NCBI GenBank assembly: GCA_951406725.2
Contig: OX597830.1
Span: forward strand, 55,614,001 to 55,678,000
Reading direction: 5' to 3'
Length of the DNA stretch: 64,000 bases
From: Octopus vulgaris
Lineage: Eukaryota
Within the stretch, counting starts at the first letter, position 1, and each line of letters starts with the position of its first letter. The translations under genes and the position numbers were made by a program. The notes beneath the pieces were generated by a model. That model was not told the DNA's origin, searched no databases, and saw only the letters and a program-made list of their open reading frames with translations. This document shows, piece by piece, positions 1 to 62,607 of this stretch.

Positions 1-180
1 AAGAGTGAGAGAAAGTTGTGGGGAAAGAGTACAGCAGGGATCGTCACCATCCTCTGCCGGAGCCGCGTGGAGCTTTAGGTATTTTTGCTCAATAAACACT
101 CACAACGCCCTGTCTGGGAATCGAAACCGCGATCCTACAACCGCGAGTCCGCTGCCCTAATCACTGGGCCATTGCGCCTC
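1..180 (-). mobile_element. tRNA-derived SINE, family A (partial)
   Basis: Reverse complement begins gaggcgcaatggcccagtg...gcagcggactcgcgg...gtttcgattccc (A/B-box-like). Similar copies at about 3478(+), 36705-36975(-), 51592-51808(-), 58742-59019(-). Confidence 0.8.
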
Positions 181-349
181 ACTGCATAGTCATATTAACC
201 ACAATAACGAAGAATTGCTGCTAATATTGTTTACAGTTGCTATTATCACCGTTTGTATGCACTTTCTCTTTTTCCTCACTGCTTTTACTATCGGCATTCT
301 GTGATGTGCTGATGTCATTTTATTCAGTCCAACTTGTCCGAAGAAGTAC

Positions 350-23743: not shown

Positions 23744-23945
23744 ATGAACGTGTTTCGCAAATATAACAGCATCGGCCAAACATGGATCTGGCTTTACCTT
23801 ATTTTAGCTTTTACTTCTTTTGCGGTTTACGGAAAGGTCTACCATTCTTGCGAGGAAGCTATGATCGACTTGGGAAGCAGTGCTGCAGATGGTATATACC
23901 AGATAATGACTTCGTCTGGGCATGCGGTTAATCTTTATTGCCATG
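23744..23945 (+). CDS. Exon 1 of secreted GON/WSC/EGF protein: signal peptide and start of GON domain
   Basis: ATG at 23744. MNVFRKYNSIGQTWIWLYLILAFTSFAVYG is hydrophobic and signal-like, followed by KVYHSCEEAM...DGIYQI...VNLYCHG, matching the GON N-terminal pattern SC..DG.Y...IYCHG. Donor G|GTAAGT at 23946, phase 1. Confidence 0.88.
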
Positions 23946-30614: not shown

Positions 30615-30980
30615 GTGGTGATCTCATTCTCGCTCACAACATCATAAGCGGAAAGTGTAACCTCTCGAAAGAGCTGTTCTTCACTCCTGCTCCAGAGCGT
30701 GGGCTGCAGGGTCACTCCGAAAAGCTCTATCTACGACGATTTCATCTCAATCGAAGGAGAGGGGCTTTCTCCGTCCGGGTTGCGGATCCGTGGAATAAGC
30801 TACCGGACGAGATAGTGAAGATGCCGACGACCGCTCAGTTCAAAGTCTCTCTTGACCAGAAATGGCCTGAACTCTTTGTATGACCACCCTCCCTGTGCAT
30901 AACTCCCTGTCTCCCCTACATGGCTTTGCTTTTGCTTTTTGAGCCAATAAAAATTGAATTAAAATTTTAAAAATTGAATT
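30615..30980 (+). mobile_element. CR1-group LINE 3' fragment
   Basis: Closely similar to 46850-47180. Confidence 0.85.
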
Positions 30981-41399: not shown

Positions 41400-43500
41400 C
41401 GCTACTAGAAGCAGCAAGTAATATCCCAGTTGGAAAAAATTGATTTTGTTATCTCATATCAAACATTACACAATGCTGGGGGTTGAAGAGATCCTAGTGG
41501 GAAATCTCGACACAGAACATGCATCTGAACGTCTGTTTTGCAATGTGTATCGTTCAGTCGAGTAATAACAGTGGAGTGACATTGAGACGTTGCTGCTAAC
41601 AGCATAATGAGAAATGACTTCACTTTTGCTCACACATATGGACCTAACAATATCAGGTATCGCTATGTTTAATTAAAGCCTCAGTAAATGCCTCGTGGAA
41701 TGGTGGGGAAGCTTTTGATAAGACATGTATTGAAAGTCAGTGTTTTCGTGATGGATGTATAAAGAGTAATAATGTGGTGTTTTTCTCAAAAATATTCAAA
41801 AATATTCAAGTTTTCTTGTAAATGCAACATAGAACTCTACCAGTGTCACTCAACAGGATCTTGATTGCATAACAAGATGAATCAATCATGATTTTAATCA
41901 CAAGTCAAGGAATTCGAGAAACACATTTAACCACAGGTTAATAAATCCATTGCCCTGTAGAATGAATGCTTTAACCGTCTCACTTTGACTTGTACAATAA
42001 CTTTGTACCATCTGGAGGATGTGGCATCGTATTTGGCGAAACATGAGCATGTTGCTAACCAACTGGCTTGTATCGTACGATGTTTCATATGTCTACAGTT
42101 CCTCAAAGTTTTGTATTGCACAGGAGCGCTGATTGGACTGCAACTTGTCAAACCATTCCTTTCGTGCATCACTTCAACAAGCACAAACTACTCAAAACTT
42201 GTGTCTGCTGTCAGACAACCTTATGATGACTTTTCCACAGTGGATCCAAACCGATTGCCAAATGTACATAGTCCTGCACTCAGTTTCGTATCTTCTAGCA
42301 GATTCTAGGAAACCAGATATGATGAAGATATATGCTGTGCTGTTGAAGCTGTTGCAACCGAATTGAATCCAGAGGTGTTAAAAGTACTGTCGAGGCTTCT
42401 TCCAAAGTTAGCAGATGGTTTCCAGAACCAGAAGGGAGTTCTGCTTTTTTTTTTTTTTTTTTGAACATCGTCAAAGAGTCTCCCCATGCTCGGGCAAGCA
42501 TGAACTTTGCTAAACTAGGGAGAGCACCCATTCACAATCTCGGCTCAAAACGTAGTGTGGGCTTTACCAACTATGAGTTGAGTCATCGAGGTGACAAGCA
42601 ACTCAAATTGCCATCTTCTTCCCAAGTTAAATCCAAGTCAGTTGATCTGATTGAACTCGAGAGTCCGGAGCATTCAGGCAATATACCAAACTCCCCAAAC
42701 CTGGGGGCGAGTACCTGATATCATTAAAGAATGGGATAACCGCCAGTAGCAGTTAATGTTGGAGGGACTGGAGAAGAAGGAAATCCCCAATATAGCAATG
42801 GATAGACGATGAACAGGCGATCTGGATATTTTAGAATAGCATAGTGGACCGTTTACTAGCAGCACTGGGGTAGAGGCCTATCTCATGACAGATATATTGG
42901 ATAAAGAAAAGGTCAATAGGCTGTGTTTAGAAATCAGATATGCCAGAGACACGGCCCTTTCTGCGCCAAAACCCAGCGACATTTTCCATCTTAAATAAAA
43001 TTATCAAAAACTGTCAATGGAACGATGTGCAATAAATTTGAAGATTTATTTGAATTAATGTGAGTTGCAAGACTGATGTAAGCCTTATTGCTTTTAATCA
43101 TGCATTGGAAGACTTGGTGTGAGGTTCTGAAGTCATAATGGTTATAAATGTATTATTGTATCTTATAAATTACGGAACTCGAAAAATGTTTTTTCTTCTG
43201 TAAAATTTAATTACTTAATTATTCATTAAATTGTTTATTCCACATCAAAATCGTGTTCTATGACCTCAAAAACATATATAAAGACATATCACATGACATT
43301 CTTGGTAACAGCTACTGATTTCATTTAAAAATCGTGTACTCTGGCCGCCATCTTGGAGTTCCGCCATATTGGAAAGTCAAATTGCGAAGTTAATACTATT
43401 TTGGGATTCAATGTATTAAAAAAAAACATGCTAAGTTAAAATATTATATATTTACGTAGAGTTTTAAATTGATTAAATTAGTTTTTACCCCTATTCTGGT
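41400..43500 (+). mobile_element. Degenerate unclassified DNA-transposon-like coding remnant
   Basis: Broken protein-like frames (LGVEEILVGNLDTEHASERLFCN; SVTQQDLDCITR; FLKVLYCTGALIGLQLVKPFLS; APIHNLGSKRSVGFTNYEL) and a subterminal ggccgccatcttgga motif at about 43343. Confidence 0.5.
41586..41796 (+). repeat. 211-bp direct copy of the 3' half of exon 3, its donor and the start of intron 3
   Basis: Matches 44028-44238 with 3 substitutions seen. Confidence 0.95.
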
Positions 43501-43944: not shown

Positions 43945-44098
43945 GTCTCCCGTATGAATGTTACCAAAATAATCCACGCCAGCTTTACTCAAAACGTGGA
44001 CGAACTGAATTCACCAAAGTCGCTTTCGACGTTGCTGCTAACAGCATAATGAGAAATGACTTCACGTTTGCTCACACATATGGACCTAACAATATCAG
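43945..44098 (+). CDS. Exon 3, GON domain (SLPYECYQNNPRQLYSKRGRTEFTKVAFDVAANSIMRNDFTFAHTYGPNNI)
   Basis: Acceptor tttctatttcAG, donor AG|GTATCG at 44099, phase 1-2. Matches the GON motif G.T.F.KV..D......DFTFA.T.G. Confidence 0.9.
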
Positions 44099-45546
44099 GT
44101 ATCGCTATGTTTAATTAAAGCCTCAGTAAATGCTTCGTGGAATGGTGGGGAAGCTTTTGATAAGACATGTATTGAAAGTCAGTGTTTTCATGATGGATGT
44201 ATAAAGAGTAATAATGTGGTGTTTTTCTCAAAAATATTTTCAAAGAGAAAAGTGCAAAAACTGCAACTGTGAATTGAAACCATGAGAGGCGAAGTTCTGG
44301 CTTAGCAAGACACGAAAGAACAGAGTCCACCATATTTTGGGGAAGCCTCCAAGTTTGATAGGAAAAAGGGTGGAAATTGTTCTATCAGGAATCCAAACCT
44401 AAATCCTTGCAACAGTACAGACTCAGCTAAAAGTACTCAGGAGTCATGGAGGTGCGTGGCCTAGTGGTTAGGATGCTGAATTCATGATCGTAAGATTGTA
44501 GATTCGAATACTGGATCAGATGATGTGTTGTGTTCTTGAACAAAACGCTTCATTTCACGTTATTCCAGTCCACTCAGCTGGCAAAAATGAGTAATACTGC
44601 CATGGATTGGCGTCCCTCAAGTTGGGGAATATATACGCCATGAAACCGGGAAACCGGCCCTTATGAGTCAACATGACTTGTGAAGGAAACTTTGCTTCTC
44701 CTTTTTTTACCCAAGAGTCAGGCGGTAGTGTTCAATTGGATTAAGGATTAAGTTTACACCTTATCGCTGAGTGCCTACATATTACACCAGAACGCTTAGC
44801 GTTTAAGTTTTTTTTTTACGCCGCACAAATCGTCCATATTCTAGTTCAAGCGGAGCATAGCAAGTTATGAAATTCATGTTTTTCTTCCAAAAGCAGTAAG
44901 AGTGAAAAATTAATTGAATTTCTATAGTCAGCCATTAAATCTGGTTCGAAATTCATTAGGAATACTTGGGAGATACCAGTAAAAATTTGACTCCTAAAAT
45001 GGATGTCAATCAAAGATAACTCTTGCAGCAATCGAACAGACGACACAAAAAGACGATGATCTTCTTTGACATAACACCACTCATTCATTCAGAGGCATAG
45101 TTAGGAGTATTTTTGACTCAATGCTCACTCAGTAATCAGCGTTTTGCTAATTCTGCTACTCGATGTTTCTGCTACACCACAACGATATATAATTCTTTAA
45201 AAACATTGTCGTAATGACCATATATGTAGGGTAGAGGTTTAGTCGATTGTTTCACGTCGACCTCAGTTCATAATTTGAATTCTGAATGTAGGAAAGGAGC
45301 TGCTTTCTAACAAAATAACAAAAGCGCTATGAACTCATGCAAGAAAAGTAAGCGAAGGTCCTATTTTGTCATGTTCATAATTAACGGAACCTATGCTTCA
45401 AGAATGTTTTCTGTCTGAAATAAGTAGAAAATTATTAAAGAGCATACATCAGTTATTAAGTATGTCGAAATTCGCTTAAAATATAATTAAAATACTAAGA
45501 AAAGATTGCGTTTCAAAACGCAACACTTATTTTCGGAACAACCTAA

Positions 45547-46307: not shown

Positions 46308-46480
46308 TTACGGAACAGCTGGTGGCATGTTCAGTCCCTTACCGCGATGTCGACCCCATGGCGTATTCAGTATTGATCTGACTGGAACACCGTTTATAAT
46401 ACACCAGAAAGCGAGATGGAAATGGGACGGACAGTTCCAAGATGGCGCAAATAATGGGACGGTAATCTTAAGCAAGTACG
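46308..46480 (+). CDS. Exon 4, GON domain (SYGTAGGMFSPLPRCRPHGVFSIDLTGTPFIIHQKARWKWDGQFQDGANNGTVILSKY)
   Basis: Acceptor ttttctttttttattAG, donor G|GTAAGT at 46481, phase 2-1. Matches the GON motif YGTAG..S...C.P.G.FSIDL.GT.F.....W...G. Confidence 0.9.
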
Positions 46481-46659
46481 GTAAGTATATGACTAAGTGC
46501 CTGCAAGAGTTGCAAGGCATATTTTTATACTAGTGTTACCGTGCCTCTTATGAAGGCGCATGGCTCGGTGGTTAGAGCGTCGAGCTTACGATCGGGAGTG
46601 TGCGAGTCCGAATCCCGGACCGAGCTGCGTGTTGTCTTCTTAAGCAAGACACTTTATTT

Positions 46660-47203
46660 ATGTCACCCTGGTGAGACCCATATTGGAGTATGGGATTCAA
46701 GCCTCTTCTCCTTATCTCCTCAAAGGCATACAGCATCTCGAAAGAGTCCAGAAGCTGGCTACCCGCATGGTTCATGGTCTCAAAAATTTGTCCTACGAAG
46801 AAAGGCTGAGGACGCTCGACCTTTATTCTCTTGAAAAACGCCGCCGCCGTAGTGATCTCATTCTCGCCCACAACATCATAAGCGGAAAGTGTAACCTCTC
46901 GAAAGAGCTGTTCTTCACTCCTGCTCCAGAGCGTCGGCTGCGGGGTCATTCCGAAAAGCTCTACCTGCGACGATTTCATCTCAATCGAAGGAGAGGAGCT
47001 TTCTCCGTCCGGGTTGCGGATCCGTGGAACAAGCTGCCAGACGAGATGGTGAAGATGCCAACGACCGCTTTGTTCAAAGCCTCCCTGGACCTCAAGTGGC
47101 CTGAACTCTTTACATGAACACCACCCTGTACTTAACTCCATGTCCCCCTACATGGCCTTGCTATTTGCTTTTGAGCCAAATTAACTAACTAACTAACTAA
47201 CTA
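46660..47203 (+). mobile_element. 5'-truncated CR1-group LINE inserted into a SINE
   Basis: ORF RPILEYG...LERVQKLATRMV.GL..LSYEERL..LDLYSLEKRRRR.DLI, with (aact)n tail. The SINE head at 46553-46659 (...caagacactttatt) resumes at about 47204 (tttcacattgctcca...). Confidence 0.9.
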
Positions 47204-47614
47204 TTTCACATTGCTCCAATTCACTCAGCTGTAGAAATGAGTTGCGACATCACTGGTGCCAAGCTGTATCGGCCCCTTTGCATTTCCCTTGGATAACATC
47301 GGTGGCGCGGGGAGGAGAGGATGGTATGCATGGCCGACTGCTGGTCTTCTATAAACAACCTTGCCCGGACTTGTGCCTCGGAGGGTAACTTTCTAGGTGC
47401 AATCTCATGGTCAGTCATGACCGAAGGGGCTCTCAACAGCAGCATGCCTCTATGTAGTTCCTATGAACCCAATTACACTCACAATTTATCGGTTGACCTG
47501 AGGCTGTAGAAAATGGCATTTGTCTCAATATCTTTAGCCTCGTCATTGCAACTGCGCCCATACACACAAGCGCATGTGCAACATACAACACACAGAATTT
47601 AATATATATATATG

Positions 47615-47712
<98 letters not shown>

Positions 47713-47757
47713 TTATTTTATATCTTAAAAATATTGATTATATTTTAGATTTTGAAA

Positions 47758-47820
47758 CCACCTGAAGAATGATTACTACTCAAAGATGTGATGAAAGAAG
47801 ACATGAAACGATCGTAGTGG
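47758..47820 (+). ncRNA. Minimal type I hammerhead ribozyme motif
   Basis: ccac CTGAAGA atg...cat GAAAC gatc GTA gtgg: stem I ccac/gtgg, intact core, palindromic stem III ACGATCGT, GUA cleavage triplet. Stem II is short. Confidence 0.62.
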
Positions 47821-48182
47821 ATAATAATAATTGTTAACTTTCTAAATAATATAAATTAATTTATGTATTGGCTTGAGTCTTTCTTTGTTTGATTTGCATA
47901 ATAGTGGTTTTGTCTCTAATTTAATATAATATATATATATATATATATATAATCCTTTCTACTATTCAAGGTCTGAAATTTTCCGGCAAATTTTCGCCAG
48001 TCTTTACGTTCTAAGTTCAAATTCCATCGAGTTCGACTTCACCTTTTATCATTTCGGGATTGATAAATTAAGTACCAGTGGAGTTCTGAGGTCGATGTAA
48101 TCGACTTAACCCCTTCCCCAAAATTTCAGACCTTGTACCTCGAGTAGAAAGGATTATGATTATTTTTTTTTTTTTTTTTCAG

Positions 48183-48313
48183 AATATATAGGTTGCTTTA
48201 AAGACATCAGAAAAAGTGTTCTTCCAATGTTGCGCTGGTCAAGTTTACATATGACCATAGAAAAATGCATTCTTAGTTGCAAAAAGGGCGGATATTATTA
48301 TGCTGGTCTGGAG
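48183..48313 (+). CDS. Exon 5, WSC domain N-half (EYIGCFKDIRKSVLPMLRWSSLHMTIEKCILSCKKGGYYYAGLE)
   Basis: Poly-T then cAG acceptor, donor GAG|GTAAGT, phase 1-0. Classic WSC pattern YIGCF.D...MT.E.C...C...GY.YAGLE. Confidence 0.92.
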
Positions 48314-49177
48314 GTAAGTTCAGCATAGATGGTTGTGTGGTACGAAGCTTGCTTCCCAACCACGCGATTTCAATATTTGTTCTACTGCGCGGTATAAATT
48401 TCTTGGTGAAGTGTCTTCTATTATTGCCCCGGGCGAACCAAAGACTTGTGAGTGGATTTGGTATGCGGAAACAGAAACAAGCCTATCGTGCGCGCATGTG
48501 TGTGTGTATGTGTGTCTTTGTGTTTGTCTGTTTCCCTACCACCGTTTGACAACCGGTGTTGGTTTGTATACGTTCCCATAGCATAGCAGTTTGGCAAAAG
48601 ACACCGATAAAAGAAATAGAGGGGGTAAAAATAGCCGCAAATAAAAGAGTGACACAAGTAAAGAAAAAATAAAAGGGATGCACACACACACAAACACACA
48701 TACACAACCCCCCCCCCCACAGACACACACACAAACGCACACACAATGGCCGTCTCCAAGAAAATTGAGCTGTATTAACCAGCCTAGACGACGGGTCAGG
48801 GATTTGTATTGTAATAAGGGCGATATAACGTACCCATAATGCAGATACATCCAAAGATCCATGACCAAGACACTCAGCTGTCAACAATCTTAGTCTATCA
48901 AGTTGTACCACAGTATGCTACAATAATCCTCTGAACTGTATCCGTGACGAAGTCACTTGACCGTCAGCAATACAGTTCACCTAGATGTGTATGTGTGTGT
49001 GTGTGTGTGTGTGTGCGTACTCTAATATCGATGAGTGAGAATGAGTGCTCAGCACTACATTGGAGGATGAATGACCCGACCTTGTTATTTTTTGTATCAT
49101 CTATCTGGATATTTTGTTGTCCCTTTTTGTATCACCTGGTTGTCCGGATGTTTTGCGTTCTTGTCCCATTTTGTATT

Positions 49178-49229
<52 letters not shown>

Positions 49230-49330
49230 AGTAGCTATAAGCAAATTGATTGAAACTAAGATATCCGCCTATATGTTTGCACTCATGCACTAGAGATTAT
49301 CCATTGTACTATTATCGTCTTCCTTTGCAG

Positions 49331-49460
49331 AATGGAAGATTTTGTTCCTGTGGAAATAGCTACAGCAAAGGGGGTGTGTCCAAACGGTGTACCGCGCGCT
49401 GCAGTGGTCAACGCTATCGAAAATGTGGTGGTTACTTAGCCCTCTCCGTTTACACTGCAG
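49331..49460 (+). CDS. Exon 6, WSC domain C-half (NGRFCSCGNSYSKGGVSKRCTARCSGQRYRKCGGYLALSVYTA)
   Basis: Acceptor cttcctttgcAG, donor G|GTATGT at 49461, phase 0-1. WSC pattern G..C.CG.....C...C.G.....CGG....SVY. Confidence 0.92.
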
Positions 49461-50517
49461 GTATGTAATAGCAAAGGCTTTAAATATTAATCGCGTGTAT
49501 AATTTCTCTGTTTCGTGATTTGTTTTTTGTTTTTTAATTTTTAATTTTAATTTAATTTAATTTAATTTTTATTGACTCAGAAAGTAAGGACATGTAGGGG
49601 GAGGATGGTCATACAAAAAGTTCAGGCCATATCCGGTCAAGTGAGACTTTGAACCGAACGGTCGTCGGCATCTTCACTATCTCGTCCGGCAGTTTATTCC
49701 ACGAATCCGCAACCCGGACGGAGAAAGCCCCTCTCCTTTTTTTTATGTTTGTTTTCAAGGGGATGTCTGTTTCAAATTATTAAGAAGGTTGTTGGCATGG
49801 CTATGTTTAGTTAAGAAGTTGTCTTAGCCAGCACATAGTTTCGGGCTCGGTCCCACGGCGCGGTACCTTGGGCAGGTGTCTTCTTCAATAGCCCCGGTCC
49901 GACCAATACCTTGGGAGTGAATTTGAATGGGGGGGGGTAACTTGTAGAAGCCCGTTGCATATATATGTGTACGTGCGTGCGTGCGCATGTGTAAGTACGT
50001 GGGTGTGTTTGTGGTTGTCTTTGTGCAAGTGCCTGTCCCCTTTTTCTACCACTTGGTAACCGATGTTGGTTTGTTTATGTCGCCTTTATTTACAGGTACG
50101 GCTTAAGAGACCGATAGAGTTTTTACTAAACTTCAAAAATACATAGTGAGGTTGATTTGTTTGAGTAAAATCCTCAGGGATGGTATCCTAGGGTGGCTGC
50201 AGTCCAATGACCGAAACAAAAGATAAAGGATAAATATATTTGCGAATCATATATAATTGCATCATACATTTAATTTTCAGTTCGAAAAAAAAAAGGCAAC
50301 TTATTGGGTCTATCTGATATCGTTCAAGCCATTTTATTATGCATACATTTAGACACATTCATACTTACATATACATACATCGACTACAGTAGAAAGCGAG
50401 TGAAAATGTAGCATCGTCTGTTGGATTCAAACATCGCATCTTCCGTACCACACCAATGTAACACAACAGATTTGACTTTCCAAATTAGAACCCTTAACTA
50501 AGTAACTAAGATTATAC

Positions 50518-51122
50518 ATACCTATTTCTTTACTGCCCACAGGGGGCTAAACACAGAGAAGACAAACAAGGACAGACAAAGGGATTAAGCCGATTATATC
50601 GACCGCAGTGCGTAACTGGTACTTATTTAATCGACCCCGAAAGGATGAAAGGCAAAGTCGACCTCGGCGGAATTTGAACTCAGAACGTAACGGCAGACGA
50701 AATACCTAGTTCTTTACTACCCACAAGGGGCTAAACACAAAGGGGACAAACAAGGACAGACAAAGGGATTAAGTCGATTACATCGACCCCAGTGCGAAAC
50801 TGGTACTTTATTTATCGACCCCGAAAGGATGAAAGGCAAAGTCGACCTCGGCGGAATTTGAACTCAGAACGTAACGGCAGATGAAATACCTAGTTCTTTA
50901 CTACCCACAAGGGGCTAAACACAAAGGGGACAAATAAGGACAGACAAAGGGATTAAGTCGATTACATCGACCCCAGTGCGAAACTGGTACTTTATTTATC
51001 GACCCCGAAAGGATGAAAGGCAAAGTCGACCTCGGCGGAATTTGAACTCAGAACGTCACGGCAGACGAAATACCGGCAAGCATTTCGCCCGCCGCGCTAA
51101 CGTTTCTGCCAGCTCGCCGCCT
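50518..51122 (-). mobile_element. SINE family B with three tandem 184-bp body units
   Basis: Unit starts recur at 50521, 50705 and 50889. Single head at about 51075-51122. Confidence 0.9.
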
Positions 51123-51229
51123 TGTTCGTGTGTGTATATGTTTATGTGTATATGCAAGTGATTGTGTGTGTGCTTGAGCTTCTGTTTGTGTCTGTAATTG
51201 TGTATCTATGTGTGTGCATGTGTTTGTGA

Positions 51230-51322
<93 letters not shown>

Positions 51323-51371
51323 CATGTACATCTACATATCTAATTATTGATACACTTGCTTTCTTTTCCAG

Positions 51372-51495
51372 GAGAATCTCACTACCGAATAGGCAAGTGT
51401 GGTGGATACCCAGCTAAATGCTACCCCGTCATGACTGACGGACAAGAAAGGGATCTCTTGTTTCTGCAATTAAATCCCACTCACCCATGCAAACA
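51372..51495 (+). CDS. Exon 7, end of GON domain and start of EGF (GESHYRIGKCGGYPAKCYPVMTDGQERDLLFLQLNPTHPCK)
   Basis: Acceptor ttcttttccAG, donor GTAACT at 51496, phase 1-2. GKCGGYPAKCYP resembles the GON C-terminal GKCGGYCGKC.P motif. Confidence 0.85.
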
Positions 51496-52456
51496 GTAAC
51501 TATGTTGTTGTTGTTGTTGTTGTTGTTCTGGTTCATGTTCTTCTTTCTAGTGTGATGGTTGTTGCTGCTTTTGTTTGTTTGTTTGTTGAGGGTAGGAAGT
51601 CGGGGACAAGAAACGGGAAGAAAAAGTGAGAGAAAGTTGAAAGTTGGAGCGAATGAGTACAACAGGGGTCGCCACCACCCCCTGCCGAAGCCTCGTGGAG
51701 CTTTAGGTGTTTTCGCTCAATAAACACACACAACGCCCGGTCTGGGAATCGAAACCGCGATCCTCCGACCGTGAGTCCGCTGCCCTAACCACTGGGCCAT
51801 TGCGCCTCTGGTTGTTGCTGCTGTTTTTGTTGTTGTTGCTCTTGGTAGTGGTGACGCTGCTATTTTTGTTAGTGTATTTAAAGTCTCTATATTCTTTCTC
51901 TCTGAAAAAGCACAAAATTTCAAGCCCTTGTTCATATTATTCTTGTTGCTAACTCAACTGCAGTGAGATGTGAAACAACTGACGTTTCGGACGTAAATCT
52001 TTCTTCGGAGAACAAAGAATATAAAGGACAAATATGACATCGTTATTAAAGTTTCTGTTATCTTTCTCACTGAAGAAGCACAAATTTCTTTGTTCTAGTT
52101 CATGTTGTTCATGTTGCTAATATAGTGGTTGTTGTTGCTATTTCTGTTACTACTGTTGTTATTGTTGTTGTTGTTGTTATGTTGTTGTTGTTGTTGTTGT
52201 TGTTGTTGCTATTGCTATGGTAGTAAATGGCGTTGTTATTTGCTGCTGCTGTTATTATTCATAAGGATAGTGTTGCTGTGATTATTGTTACCGTTGCTGC
52301 TGCTGTTGCTGCTGCTGCTACTGCAGCTACTACTATTGATGTTGCTGTTGCAAATTATGATGTTGCTGCTTCTGTTATTGCTGTTGATGATGTTGTTGCA
52401 ACTGTTACTGTTGTTGTTGTTGTGGTTGTTTTTGTTGTTGTTGTTTTTGTTGTTGT

Positions 52457-53364: not shown

Positions 53365-53468
53365 AAAAATCTGTGCTCCTTTCGGAATATGCATTGCAAC
53401 GACCAGCGATGGATTCTTTTGTCAATGTCCCACTGGATTTTCAGGATCCCGATGTCAAACGAGAACAG
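53365..53468 (+). CDS. Exon 8, EGF-like domain (QKICAPFGICIATTSDGFFCQCPTGFSGSRCQTRT)
   Basis: Poly-T tttAG acceptor, donor G|GTTAGT, phase 2-1. With the PCK from exon 7 it gives a 6-Cys EGF ending C.CP.GF.G.RC. Confidence 0.9.
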
Positions 53469-54386: not shown

Positions 54387-56883
54387 ATATATATGAAAAA
54401 ACAAGTCAAAAATAGAAAATGCTAAGATGATTTTATAGTGAATCTTTCAATACCGGTTTCGGTCATTTTGAGACCTTTTCAACTGTAACGATTAAATAAT
54501 TAAATTTAGAAAAATTAGAAGAAAAGTTTTTTTAAAAGAATATTTCTGTAGTAGTGTTCAGATATAAGTAGCATTCTGCCTTTCTCTGACTCCCTTGTTT
54601 GCACTTGTGTGTTCGAGGTCGTTTTGAGTTCTTGGTAGGATAGGTGAAGAATAAGGAGGCTGAATTGGAGAGGGGGTGGGGAAATCTGGGAATGCCTTAA
54701 TGGTCGTATTTTGAATGGTCAGTGGCTGACAGTAGTCGCAGTTCAATTCAGGAATTGTTTATGGAATTTGCGTAGGCGTTATACTGAAAGACATTAGTGA
54801 CAAGGTTAAGGGGTGGAAGGTGGAGAAGTAGAAGAAGAAGATGACGATGTTGATGATGATGATGATGAAGAAGAAGAAGAAGAAGAAGAAGAAGAAGAAG
54901 AAGAAGAAGAAGAAGGAGAAGGAGAAGATGGTGGTGATGATGATGACGACGATGATGATGATAATGATGATGATGAAGAAGAAGAGGAAGAAGAAGAAGA
55001 AAAAAACAGAGAAGGGAGAATATGAATGGGTGTAAGTATAGCTGTGATGGGGCTGATTAGTAATGGATTCTATGGAGTGTAATATTTGTGTGTGTATATA
55101 TTTCTTGTATTCTAAAGTTGAGGTATATTAATTGTTTGTCGTAGACCCGTTAAGAAGTGGCTTGTATTTTGTAATAAAGAGATTTTCTTTACTTATTCGT
55201 TGTCTCGAGGTTGTATCGTCCCTAAATTGGTAGAGGGGGAAAATTCTGAAGTTTGGTGTTTTTTTGTTGGCGCAAGTATCTATGTGTTGGCTAAAATCTA
55301 TTTTTCTGTTTTGGGGAATTTTTATCTGGGATCTGTGCAGGGCCATTCGTTTACGCAAACCATTTTTTGTTTGGCCTATGTACTGCTCTTGACACCCGGA
55401 GCAGGTTAGTGAGTATATTAGGTTCTCCGAAGCACATGTGAAGTTGCTTTTCACTGTAAACCGTTGTCCCTGTTTGAAGGAGAACTTTGATCCCTCAATT
55501 AGATAGTCGCATATCCCGCAATTGGGTCTTCCACATTTTTTTACTGTCGGCTTCTGTGTTGAAGAGTGAATTCGGGCTTGTGTTAGGAGACTTTTCATGG
55601 ATCTAGGCTGTCTTTTGCTTTTTATGATCGTGTGTGTTTGGAGGATTGTGTTCATTCTGTGGTCTTTTTTTAGGAGGGGTATGTTGTGGAGGATGGTGTC
55701 GAAGGCTTCGTTATTGAGAGGGTTGTGTGTGGAGATGTATGGTAAGGCTTTTGGTTGTAAGTTTTTCTTTGATTTGGGATGTCTCAGTTCCTTGATGTTA
55801 AGTTGAAGGGCACGTTGAATGCACTTCTCAATAAGTGAAGGTGGATAGTTCCTGGTGATAAGGGTATCTTTTAGTTCTTGTAGTCGTGTGTCTCTGGTGT
55901 TTGCGTTCGAGACTATAGTGCATATCCTTTTTGCTAGATTGAAGGGGATATTCATCCTGGTGTGTCTGGGGTGGCATGAATTGAATGGAAGATATTGCTT
56001 AGAGTCTGTAGGCTTATAGTATATGTCTGTTTCTATTATATTATTAGCTTTCTTAATGAGGATATCGAGGAAGGGGAGTTGTTGCTGGCTATATTCCATC
56101 GTGAATTGGATGTTTACGTCCAGTCCGTTTAAAATTTCCTGGAATTCTATGAGTTTTTCTATATTTTTATGCCAAAGGATGAAACAGTCATCTAGATATC
56201 TCTTCCAGTTGTTTTCTATGTAGATGGAGAAAGGGCTGCCATATCTTTCTAGAACCTTACGATACAGACTGATCTCTAGGTATCCTATGACTAGGTTGGC
56301 AAAGGAGGGGGCCATTCGTGTACCCATCGCAGTCCCCGATTTTTGTCGGTAGAAGTTGTCATTGAAGGCGAAGAAGTTATTTTCCAGGATGAATTTAACC
56401 TCTTCTTCATCATCATCATCATCAACATCGTCATCTTCTTCTTCTACTTCTCCACCTTCCACCCCTTAACCTTGTCACTAATGTCTTTCAGTATAACGCC
56501 TACGCAAATTCCATAAACAATTCCTGAATTGAACTGCAACTACTGTCAGCCACTGACCATTCAAAATACGACCATTAAGGCATTCCCAGATTTCCCCACC
56601 CCCTCTCCACATCAGCCTCCTTATTCTTCACCTATCCTACCAAGAACTCAAAACGACCTCGAACACACAAGTGCAAACAAGGGAGTCAGAGAAAGGCAGA
56701 ATGCTACTTATATCTGAACACTACTACAGAAATATTCTTTTAAAAAAACTTTTCTTCTAATTTTTCTAAATTCAATTATTTAATCGTTACAGTTGAAAAG
56801 GTCTCAAAATGACCGAAACCGGTACTGAAAGATTCACTATAAAATCATCTTAGCATTTTCTATTTTTGACTTGTTTTTTCATA

Positions 56884-60137: not shown

Positions 60138-60259
60138 AACAAACTACTACCAATCAGAAGTGTCCTGCCGACTACCAACCGGAATCTTGCGCATGTCAGA
60201 AGAATGACTGTTATGGAGCGAAACTCCAAAATGGTTTTTGCTACACAAACAAGGGAAGG
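60138..60259 (+). CDS. Exon 9, cysteine-rich repeat (EQTTTNQKCPADYQPESCACQKNDCYGAKLQNGFCYTNKGR)
   Basis: Acceptor ctcttcaccAG, donor AGG|GTATGC at 60260, phase 1-0. Open frame with 5 Cys, phase-compatible with exons 8 and 10. Confidence 0.8.
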
Positions 60260-62479: not shown

Positions 62480-62607
62480 GCAAGTCTAACCTGCAGATAT
62501 GGAAAGTTTCCCACGATTTCTGTTACAGAAGTGCATTCAAAACCAAATGAAAACTTCGTAAGATGTCCAACGGGTTCTACGATGTTGTCATGCACCTACT
62601 GGTCTTC
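62480..62607 (+). CDS. Exon 10, cysteine-rich repeat (ASLTCRYGKFPTISVTEVHSKPNENFVRCPTGSTMLSCTYWS); gene probably continues beyond the window
   Basis: Acceptor ttttttttcAG, probable donor GTACGT at 62608, phase 0-2. Second CP.G.....C unit. Confidence 0.75.

Follow-up and report, generated by a model that had tools for sequence, protein, structure and literature searches.

A complete WSC domain is encoded inside a GON domain in a gene of Octopus vulgaris that begins in a 64,000-nucleotide stretch of contig OX597830.1 (assembly GCA_951406725.2), hereafter the window. The window corresponds to C17:55,614,001-55,678,000 of the 2.8-Gb genome searched, and positions without a contig name count from its first letter. 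The WSC domain is nested within the GON coding sequence, a conclusion that we regard as virtually certain. This arrangement is not octopus-specific but an old, fixed design. For the locus as a whole, the explanation that we find probable is that the nested WSC domain is spliced into the transcript, that it derives from an old shuffling insertion, and that it forms part of a predicted ligand-binding receptor head.

A WSC cassette within the GON coding sequence

Ten exons in the window, all with AG/GT ends, can be chained through 450 codons without a stop.

23744..23945 (+), exon 1, coding part: start codon, predicted signal peptide and start of GON; 85% match to residues 1-73 of O. bimaculoides XP_014770689.1
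39563..39646 (+), exon 2: GON 36-60; Pfam E 5e-6, 27 bits
43945..44098 (+), exon 3: GON 81-117; Pfam E 1.9e-6, 28.4 bits; its 3' letters precede exon 4 in 4/4 contigs (see below)
46308..46480 (+), exon 4: GON 122-161 and the strand before the insertion; Pfam E 7.8e-5, 23.1 bits; phase 1 after
48183..48313 (+), exon 5: first half of WSC; 131 nt, phase 1 to phase 0; Pfam WSC 1-45, E 1.7e-7
49331..49460 (+), exon 6: second half of WSC; 130 nt, phase 0 to phase 1; Pfam WSC 47-82, E 6.6e-4, and ortholog alignment
51372..51495 (+), exon 7: C-terminal GON strands with CGGYP; phase 2; Pfam GON 175-193, E 0.096; donor at 51496
53365..53468 (+), exon 8: EGF-like domain; Pfam EGF E 1.9e-5; in frame with exon 7, same position in orthologs
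60138..60259 (+), exon 9: family-specific cysteine-rich region; tblastn match to ortholog residues 370-414; 0 Pfam families
62480..62607 (+), exon 10: cysteine-rich region continued; tblastn match with orthologs; the gene extends beyond the window

Pfam was run exon by exon (GON, PF08685, cut-off 22.6 bits; WSC, PF01822). Exons 2, 3 and 4 each pass the GON cut-off individually, and orthologs reach E 1e-32. The cassette formed by exons 5 and 6 (261 nt) lies between GON profile positions 161 and 175 and carries the CGG motif and the eight conserved cysteines of a WSC domain. With a GON profile of our own, built from 13 contiguous GON domains, the inclusion form gives a match broken into positions 2-172 and 181-194 around the WSC domain, at E 4.5e-18. 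When exons 5 and 6 are removed computationally, a single GON match of 131.4 bits covers positions 2-194 (exons 1-4 alone, 120.0 bits).

These results bear out what had been proposed from the letters of the window alone (the sequence-only reading), namely a complete eight-cysteine WSC domain within GON, encoded by a symmetric phase 1-1 cassette whose removal keeps the frame and yields a contiguous GON match. The exon coordinates and intron phases given there are also correct, with phases 1, 0, 1 and 2 after exons 4, 5, 6 and 7. Two details need to be amended: the tail motif had been given as CGGYC, and the subfamily has CGGYP throughout; and exon 7 is internal to a much longer gene. Exon 7 has an in-frame donor one base before a TAA codon, and this donor, together with the orthologous exons downstream, rules out a short secreted product terminated by the TAA. 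The RNA junction described below and the orthologs likewise rule out an assembly artefact or a nested foreign gene. Exon 4 is 88% identical to the O. bimaculoides protein, a model that has no WSC domain because it reads through into intron 4 and then ends at a stop.

Exon 7 as the GON tail

The tails of uninterrupted GON domains align with exon 7 column for column. After the WSC domain the motif reads CGG[YF]PxxC, compared with the canonical G-x-CGG-x-C-x-x-C-x-P, and exon 4 reads GGM at the GDC of canonical GON. Among 164 GON motif matches in stored proteins, 117 reach the tail; the GDC cysteine and CGGxC are both present in 76 and both absent (GDx, CGGxP) in 41, with no mixed case, although this split probably goes back to a single inherited change that is counted repeatedly. 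The paired presence or absence ties the exon 7 motif to this GON, and it suggests that the subfamily may have lost one disulfide, between the GDC and CGGxC cysteines. One relative, P0031, has the GDx/CGGxP signature and no WSC domain, its tail following directly on the N-terminal part of GON (GON-N). Its two matches in the octopus genome are exon 7 (the best, E 0.057) and exon 4 (E 0.19). Conservation among nine orthologs is 49% for the GON tail, 43% for GON-N and 48% for WSC. WSC is thus about as conserved as the GON parts on either side, in keeping with a fixed and functional element.

An alternative to nesting is that GON is truncated after exon 4, that WSC follows in tandem, and that exon 7 is a linker resembling a GON tail by chance or through a copied WSC CGG. 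It is true that exon 7 alone scores only E 0.096, under the Pfam cut-off, that WSC domains carry a conserved CGG of their own (PMC9024836), and that three models (O. bimaculoides, Ciona and one from Dreissena) stop before the tail. However, all three short models end where the octopus gene has introns. The conservation of the tail, its alignment with canonical tails, the paired cysteine loss and the P0031 tail, for which exon 7 is the best match, also argue against a linker, and we consider a tandem arrangement extremely improbable.

Predicted structure of the nested head

Structure prediction agrees with the earlier proposal that the WSC domain occupies a loop of the GON fold rather than a place between domains. 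The head of a mussel ortholog (307 residues, 62 rows) was modelled by AlphaFold2 with a predicted local distance difference test score (pLDDT) of 83.3 and a predicted template modelling score of 0.73; the strands after WSC (blocks 271-300) have pLDDT 92-97. The inserted WSC has a PAN/apple-type fold in this model, in which residues 176-265 superpose on the WSC domains of Kremen (5fws; Z 11.1, root-mean-square deviation 2.0, 88 aligned) and yeast Wsc1 (7pz2; Z 9.2). Kremen WSC is the closest solved structure, with 36% identity. The model of P0031 (pLDDT 86.0) has the same strand order as the nested head, and its strands 180-184 and 189-194 are joined by a four-residue turn where the nested form has the WSC domain.

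Positions 24..188 of 8okh_B are matched by 47..307 of the nested model and by 69..225 of the plain model, and the same pattern is seen with 5u6f_A and 3v10_B. Matching extends across the WSC insert of the nested model just as it runs through the unbroken domain of P0031, which would be expected if the tail completes the sheet, although these beta-sandwich matches are weak (Z 2-3.7) and show no kinship. Of the whole C-terminal fold of fibrinogen-related (FReD) lectins, only the first subdomain is matched, by the first ~45 GON residues (root-mean-square deviation ~2, Z 2.2-3.2; Foldseek E 8e-3 or weaker). Among solved structures, fold searches brought up no clear relative for the GON sandwich (best Z 3.7; no Foldseek match at E 0.001), which does not show that the fold is new, and a structure search found no solved GON structure.

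On these models, GON would fold as a small fibrinogen-like first subdomain plus a beta-sandwich whose last strands are supplied by the segment after WSC. The WSC domain is predicted to be a separate domain hanging from a surface hairpin loop between two strands of the GON sheet. In the WSC topology the first strand lies next to the last (PMC9024836), and grafting into a turn would thus be possible.

Splicing of the cassette

The sequence-only reading had raised the possibility that splicing switches a lectin-like module on or off. Although exon 4 is present in 20 of 24 listed sequencing runs, none of these is on record as RNA. Four runs from four studies were aligned on exon 4 and its flanks, and they were treated as cDNA because their contigs show spliced junctions. 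Each run gave one contig, which joins the end of exon 3, the whole of exon 4 and the opening 30 bases of exon 5. No skip of exons 5-6, no intron read-through and no second loose end occurs in the contigs of these four runs, with the reservation that assembled contigs lose rare variants and a minor skip form could escape. The contigs are 4.5-4.9 kb long, extend 3.9-4.1 kb beyond exon 4 and have a mean word depth of 55-213; the gene pieces found after exon 4 total at least 3,472 nt, in line with these lengths. Hence, among the junctions that the earlier reading had named for an RNA check, 46480>48183 is present in all four runs, whereas the skip, 46480>51372, is found in none.

Evidence from other molluscs is similar. 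A clean skip is absent from the annotated isoform sets of oysters, mussels, Pomacea and Mya, and three 2,216-residue proteins of an oyster cluster, derived from Logan contigs of 6.8-8.4 kb that are too short for introns, are nested. It is very likely that exons 5-6 are included constitutively. A regulated cassette, in which inclusion or skipping of these exons would switch the binding module, might be considered on the grounds that the skip preserves the frame and gives a one-piece GON match, and that P0031 shows an uninterrupted member of the subfamily to exist and, by prediction, to fold well. Nevertheless, the single contig of each run contains exon 5, no clean skip appears in named orthologs or annotated isoforms, and the module origin of the cassette already explains its phase symmetry. 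Moreover, P0031 has canonical loop spacing, unlike a skip product, and only 26-30% identity to the aligned nested rows, so it looks like a separate gene. An on/off switch is therefore improbable.

Distribution and origin of the nested form

Relatives were found through a HMMER library and an alignment query; word-indexed searches, whether started from exon 4 or from the O. bimaculoides protein, returned that protein alone. In the ESM Atlas, the nested head remained under 0.9, and the first cluster for P0031, at 0.96, is possibly its own. Nesting with both GON parts present was found in 17 named bivalve and gastropod species: Lottia (whose model is short of the last 16 WSC residues), Pomacea, Crassostrea virginica, Magallana gigas, Magallana angulata, two Saccostrea, Ostrea, four Mytilus, Ylistrum, Argopecten, Pecten, Mya and Dreissena. 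The tail motif of the subfamily occurs in 46 stored proteins (rows that include isoforms and alleles), and both WSC halves precede the tail in 42 of them. The remaining four are two Mya gene models with the second WSC half only, one protein that starts inside WSC, and P0031; no clean skip occurs among the named proteins of the 46. In a Ciona intestinalis model on an 18-Mb contig, a GON of the subfamily precedes the first half of WSC, and the model breaks off at the point that corresponds to the end of octopus exon 5; it suggests that the insertion predates the mollusc-tunicate split. The nesting is shared across molluscs and is probably older than they are.

In the octopus genome the WSC profile has 37 matches, many of them as pairs covering 1-46 and 47-82. 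In the stretches examined, the WSC exons of C13 are bounded by phase-1 introns and divided by a phase-0 intron that follows GLE, GLQ or GLT, as in the cassette; the WSC copies on C3 and C17 have the inner intron elsewhere or none. With phase-1 introns at both WSC borders and the same 1-0-1 exon pair in other octopus WSC genes, the unit is an ordinary class 1-1 module in the sense of Patthy. The other octopus GON genes, one of ADAMTS type on C1 and two on C10, have no WSC domain inside; the latter (C10:23,284,669-23,288,882 and 24,990,062-24,997,551) are a related pair with an uninterrupted GON. These paralogs show no phase-1 intron that could have marked the insertion site beforehand: the C1 gene has a nearby intron, apparently of phase 0, and the C10 genes have none in the region.

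All 76 canonical GON domains are uninterrupted, including those of amphioxus, coral and a choanoflagellate, so that by parsimony, on the sequences compared, the insertion is the derived state. In a quick tree of GON rows the nested group stands apart from ADAMTS GONs, and P0031, which either never had a WSC domain or has lost it, lies on a long branch. Exon shuffling is a highly probable origin. A phase 1-1 WSC module would have entered a GON gene once, before bivalves, gastropods and cephalopods separated and probably before the mollusc-tunicate split, and would later have become constitutive.

A candidate for the form that preceded the insertion is a choanoflagellate protein, P0110 (EP00056_Hartaetosiga_gracilis_P016133). 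Its GON is N-terminal, as in the octopus receptor described below, and both proteins then have EGF, an EGF-YDYC-FN2 block (E 1e-13), laminin-G, a set of EGF repeats (E 4e-36) and a transmembrane segment. Unlike that receptor, P0110 has an uninterrupted GON with both cysteines, is 3,036 residues long and contains other inserts.

GON domains were also seen in other settings. Several bacteria-like proteins (P0038, P0081, P0139 and P0145) have GON-like domains with GGG for CGG, and in some of them lipoprotein-type signals and GON copies in tandem are seen. When P0031 was used to scan metagenomes, three distant loci were obtained, two of which read as bacteria-like GON open reading frames (L034:1096-2025 and L035:178-1113). 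Judging from these sequences, GON may not be confined to eukaryotes. In P0012-P0016, P0020, P0021, P0025, P0045 and P0061, close GON domains are joined to trypsin, VWA, link, C-type lectin, F5/8, kringle or tandem WSC; with so many partners, GON appears to be itself a mobile module outside ADAMTS.

The predicted full-length receptor

When five orthologs were compared by tblastn with the window and the next 160 kb, collinear exons were found downstream in the order EGF, FN2, laminin-G, Gly-rich region, second WSC, ~2-3 EGF repeats and transmembrane segment. The transmembrane exon lies near C17:55,734,600-55,734,740, ~57 kb past the window end. Several exons at C17 ~55,706,400-55,716,700 encode the conserved Gly-rich region between laminin-G and the second WSC, for which the ortholog scans list no Pfam match. 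Bivalve and gastropod orthologs have ~2,200 residues and a longer EGF stalk than octopus, and a transmembrane-like segment with a tail of 37-92 residues ends 23 of the 24 long family proteins examined. The tail has a perfect NPxY motif in oysters (FSNPHY or FTNPHY) and in gastropods (DNPMY or ENPMY). The protein is predicted from these exons to be a type I, single-pass membrane receptor.

Database labels on family members include ADAMTS9-like, MEGF6/11-like, PEAR1-like and Kremen, or are lacking altogether. Part of the reason is that GON and WSC in the full-length proteins are masked by HMMER at its default filtering: neither domain was reported in six of the eight orthologs scanned, and a local GON profile found GON in 4 of 12 family proteins by default and in all 12 with the bias filter off. 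The label ADAMTS9-like is wrong for the octopus gene, since Pfam finds no metalloprotease, TSP1 or spacer domain upstream of GON in the orthologs, and GON comes directly after the signal peptide.

Other features of the locus

The 3' portion of exon 3, donor included (44028-44238), has a 98.6% identical copy of 211 bp in intron 2 (41586-41796), perhaps duplicated locally and recently next to a mobile element. Intron 8 contains a 445-residue open frame at 55128-56465 (-), which by appearance we take to be a Penelope-type reverse transcriptase with a GIY-YIG endonuclease. Mutually related fragments at 46644-47117, 30696-30877 and 49609-49776 (-), in introns 4, 1 and 6, are presumably the C-terminus of a long interspersed element reverse transcriptase. 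Intron 6 also holds a 184-bp unit repeated three times in tandem at 50518-51074, with 95% matches.

Discussion

The nested arrangement is real, spliced in, conserved and apparently undescribed. The sequence-only reading had known of no protein in which WSC is nested in GON, and our literature search likewise found no description of one, most subscription journals and all supplements being outside its scope; the accessible parts of PMC549037, PMC4224354 and PMC10855680 contain nothing on it. The shuffling of a module into a host domain is itself already known. Examples are the FN2 repeats in the catalytic domain of MMP-2 and MMP-9 and the L4 domain in a laminin LE repeat, where a mobile module likewise sits constitutively in a loop of its host domain; only the modules and hosts differ.

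Several observations weigh against the overall explanation offered here, in addition to the score of exon 7, the shared ancestry behind the cysteine counts and the weakness of the sandwich matches. The octopus junctions seen are 3>4 and 4>5, with 5>6, 6>7 and 7>8 falling outside the contig alignment, and the fold models are those of a mussel ortholog and of P0031 rather than of the octopus protein. The Ciona model halts halfway through WSC, before any GON tail, and the grouping of 13 nested rows with P0031 in the quick tree of 75 GON rows is at a value of 84 in the Shimodaira-Hasegawa-like approximate likelihood ratio test and is drawn open. As for function, no ligand, expression site or phenotype was found, the tail motif is degenerate in mussels, scallops and clams, NP(L/V)(A/H), and the candidate octopus tail exon has no NPxY.

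Carried on the tip of an EGF stalk, the GON[WSC] head might capture glycans or glycoproteins. A role as a scavenger, uptake or adhesion receptor is quite possible, because the protein has a signal peptide, binding-type modules atop an EGF stalk, one transmembrane helix, a short tail with NPxY in part of the family, and no enzyme domain. Receptors of the MEGF10/Draper/CED-1, SREC and stabilin types are similarly type I proteins with a long EGF run and an NPxY-type tail in some species. In contrast to MEGF10/Draper/CED-1, no EMI or fasciclin head is among the Pfam matches here; the N-terminus is GON[WSC], followed by FN2, laminin-G and the Gly-rich region, and the octopus stalk has only ~2-3 EGF repeats.

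The main rival to a scavenger or lectin is a signalling co-receptor whose head binds proteins, as the WSC domain of Kremen does in Wnt control. Both carbohydrate-binding and protein-binding WSC domains are on record, and yeast Wsc1 has no apparent glycan pocket, according to PMC9024836. The inserted domain also resembles the Kremen and Wsc1 domains in its eight cysteines, CGG motif and predicted PAN/apple fold, with Kremen the nearest solved structure at the identity given above. However, any animal WSC would be expected to resemble Kremen, and the octopus WSC is nested in another domain rather than placed in series, with a second, ordinary WSC further down the receptor. There is no kringle or CUB domain, the stalk consists of EGF repeats with FN2 and laminin-G, and the tail is short, with no enzyme domain. 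A co-receptor of this kind is unlikely.

It is also conceivable that GON acts inside the endoplasmic reticulum (ER) and that the WSC domain tunes this role. In GON-1 and ADAMTS9 the GON domain acts in ER-to-Golgi transport and inside the ER (PMC3338439). The octopus GON is homologous to those of ADAMTS9, ADAMTS20 and GON-1 over the whole profile, with both halves, and these proteins likewise have a signal peptide and are luminal or extracellular. Here, however, GON is N-terminal rather than C-terminal, is interrupted by WSC and forms the tip of a long stalked membrane protein; it lacks one cysteine pair and is separate from ADAMTS GONs in the quick tree. An ER role is more improbable still than the splicing switch considered above.

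A wider reading can be put forward tentatively, and we hold it to be possible rather than probable. GON[WSC] would serve as a composite head for recognition in an undescribed receptor family that dates back at least to the protostome-deuterostome split, with WSC grafted onto a pre-animal GON receptor like P0110. In that case GON itself would be a general binding fold of extracellular proteins, found also in bacteria-like proteins and borrowed by ADAMTS9/20. If this is true, the receptor family gives a direct way to find the ligand of GON.

One loop of GON accommodates an entire domain, and this identifies a loop on the surface of the fold as well as a subfamily-specific cysteine pair. The locus is also a clean and datable example of a domain split by exon shuffling, and it can be compared with an uninterrupted relative. 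Moreover, where the reported role of GON (PMC3338439) is ER transport by ADAMTS9/GON-1, here GON heads a conserved membrane receptor. As a surface receptor conserved in farmed oysters, mussels and scallops, it would be easy to test for roles in immunity, uptake or adhesion.

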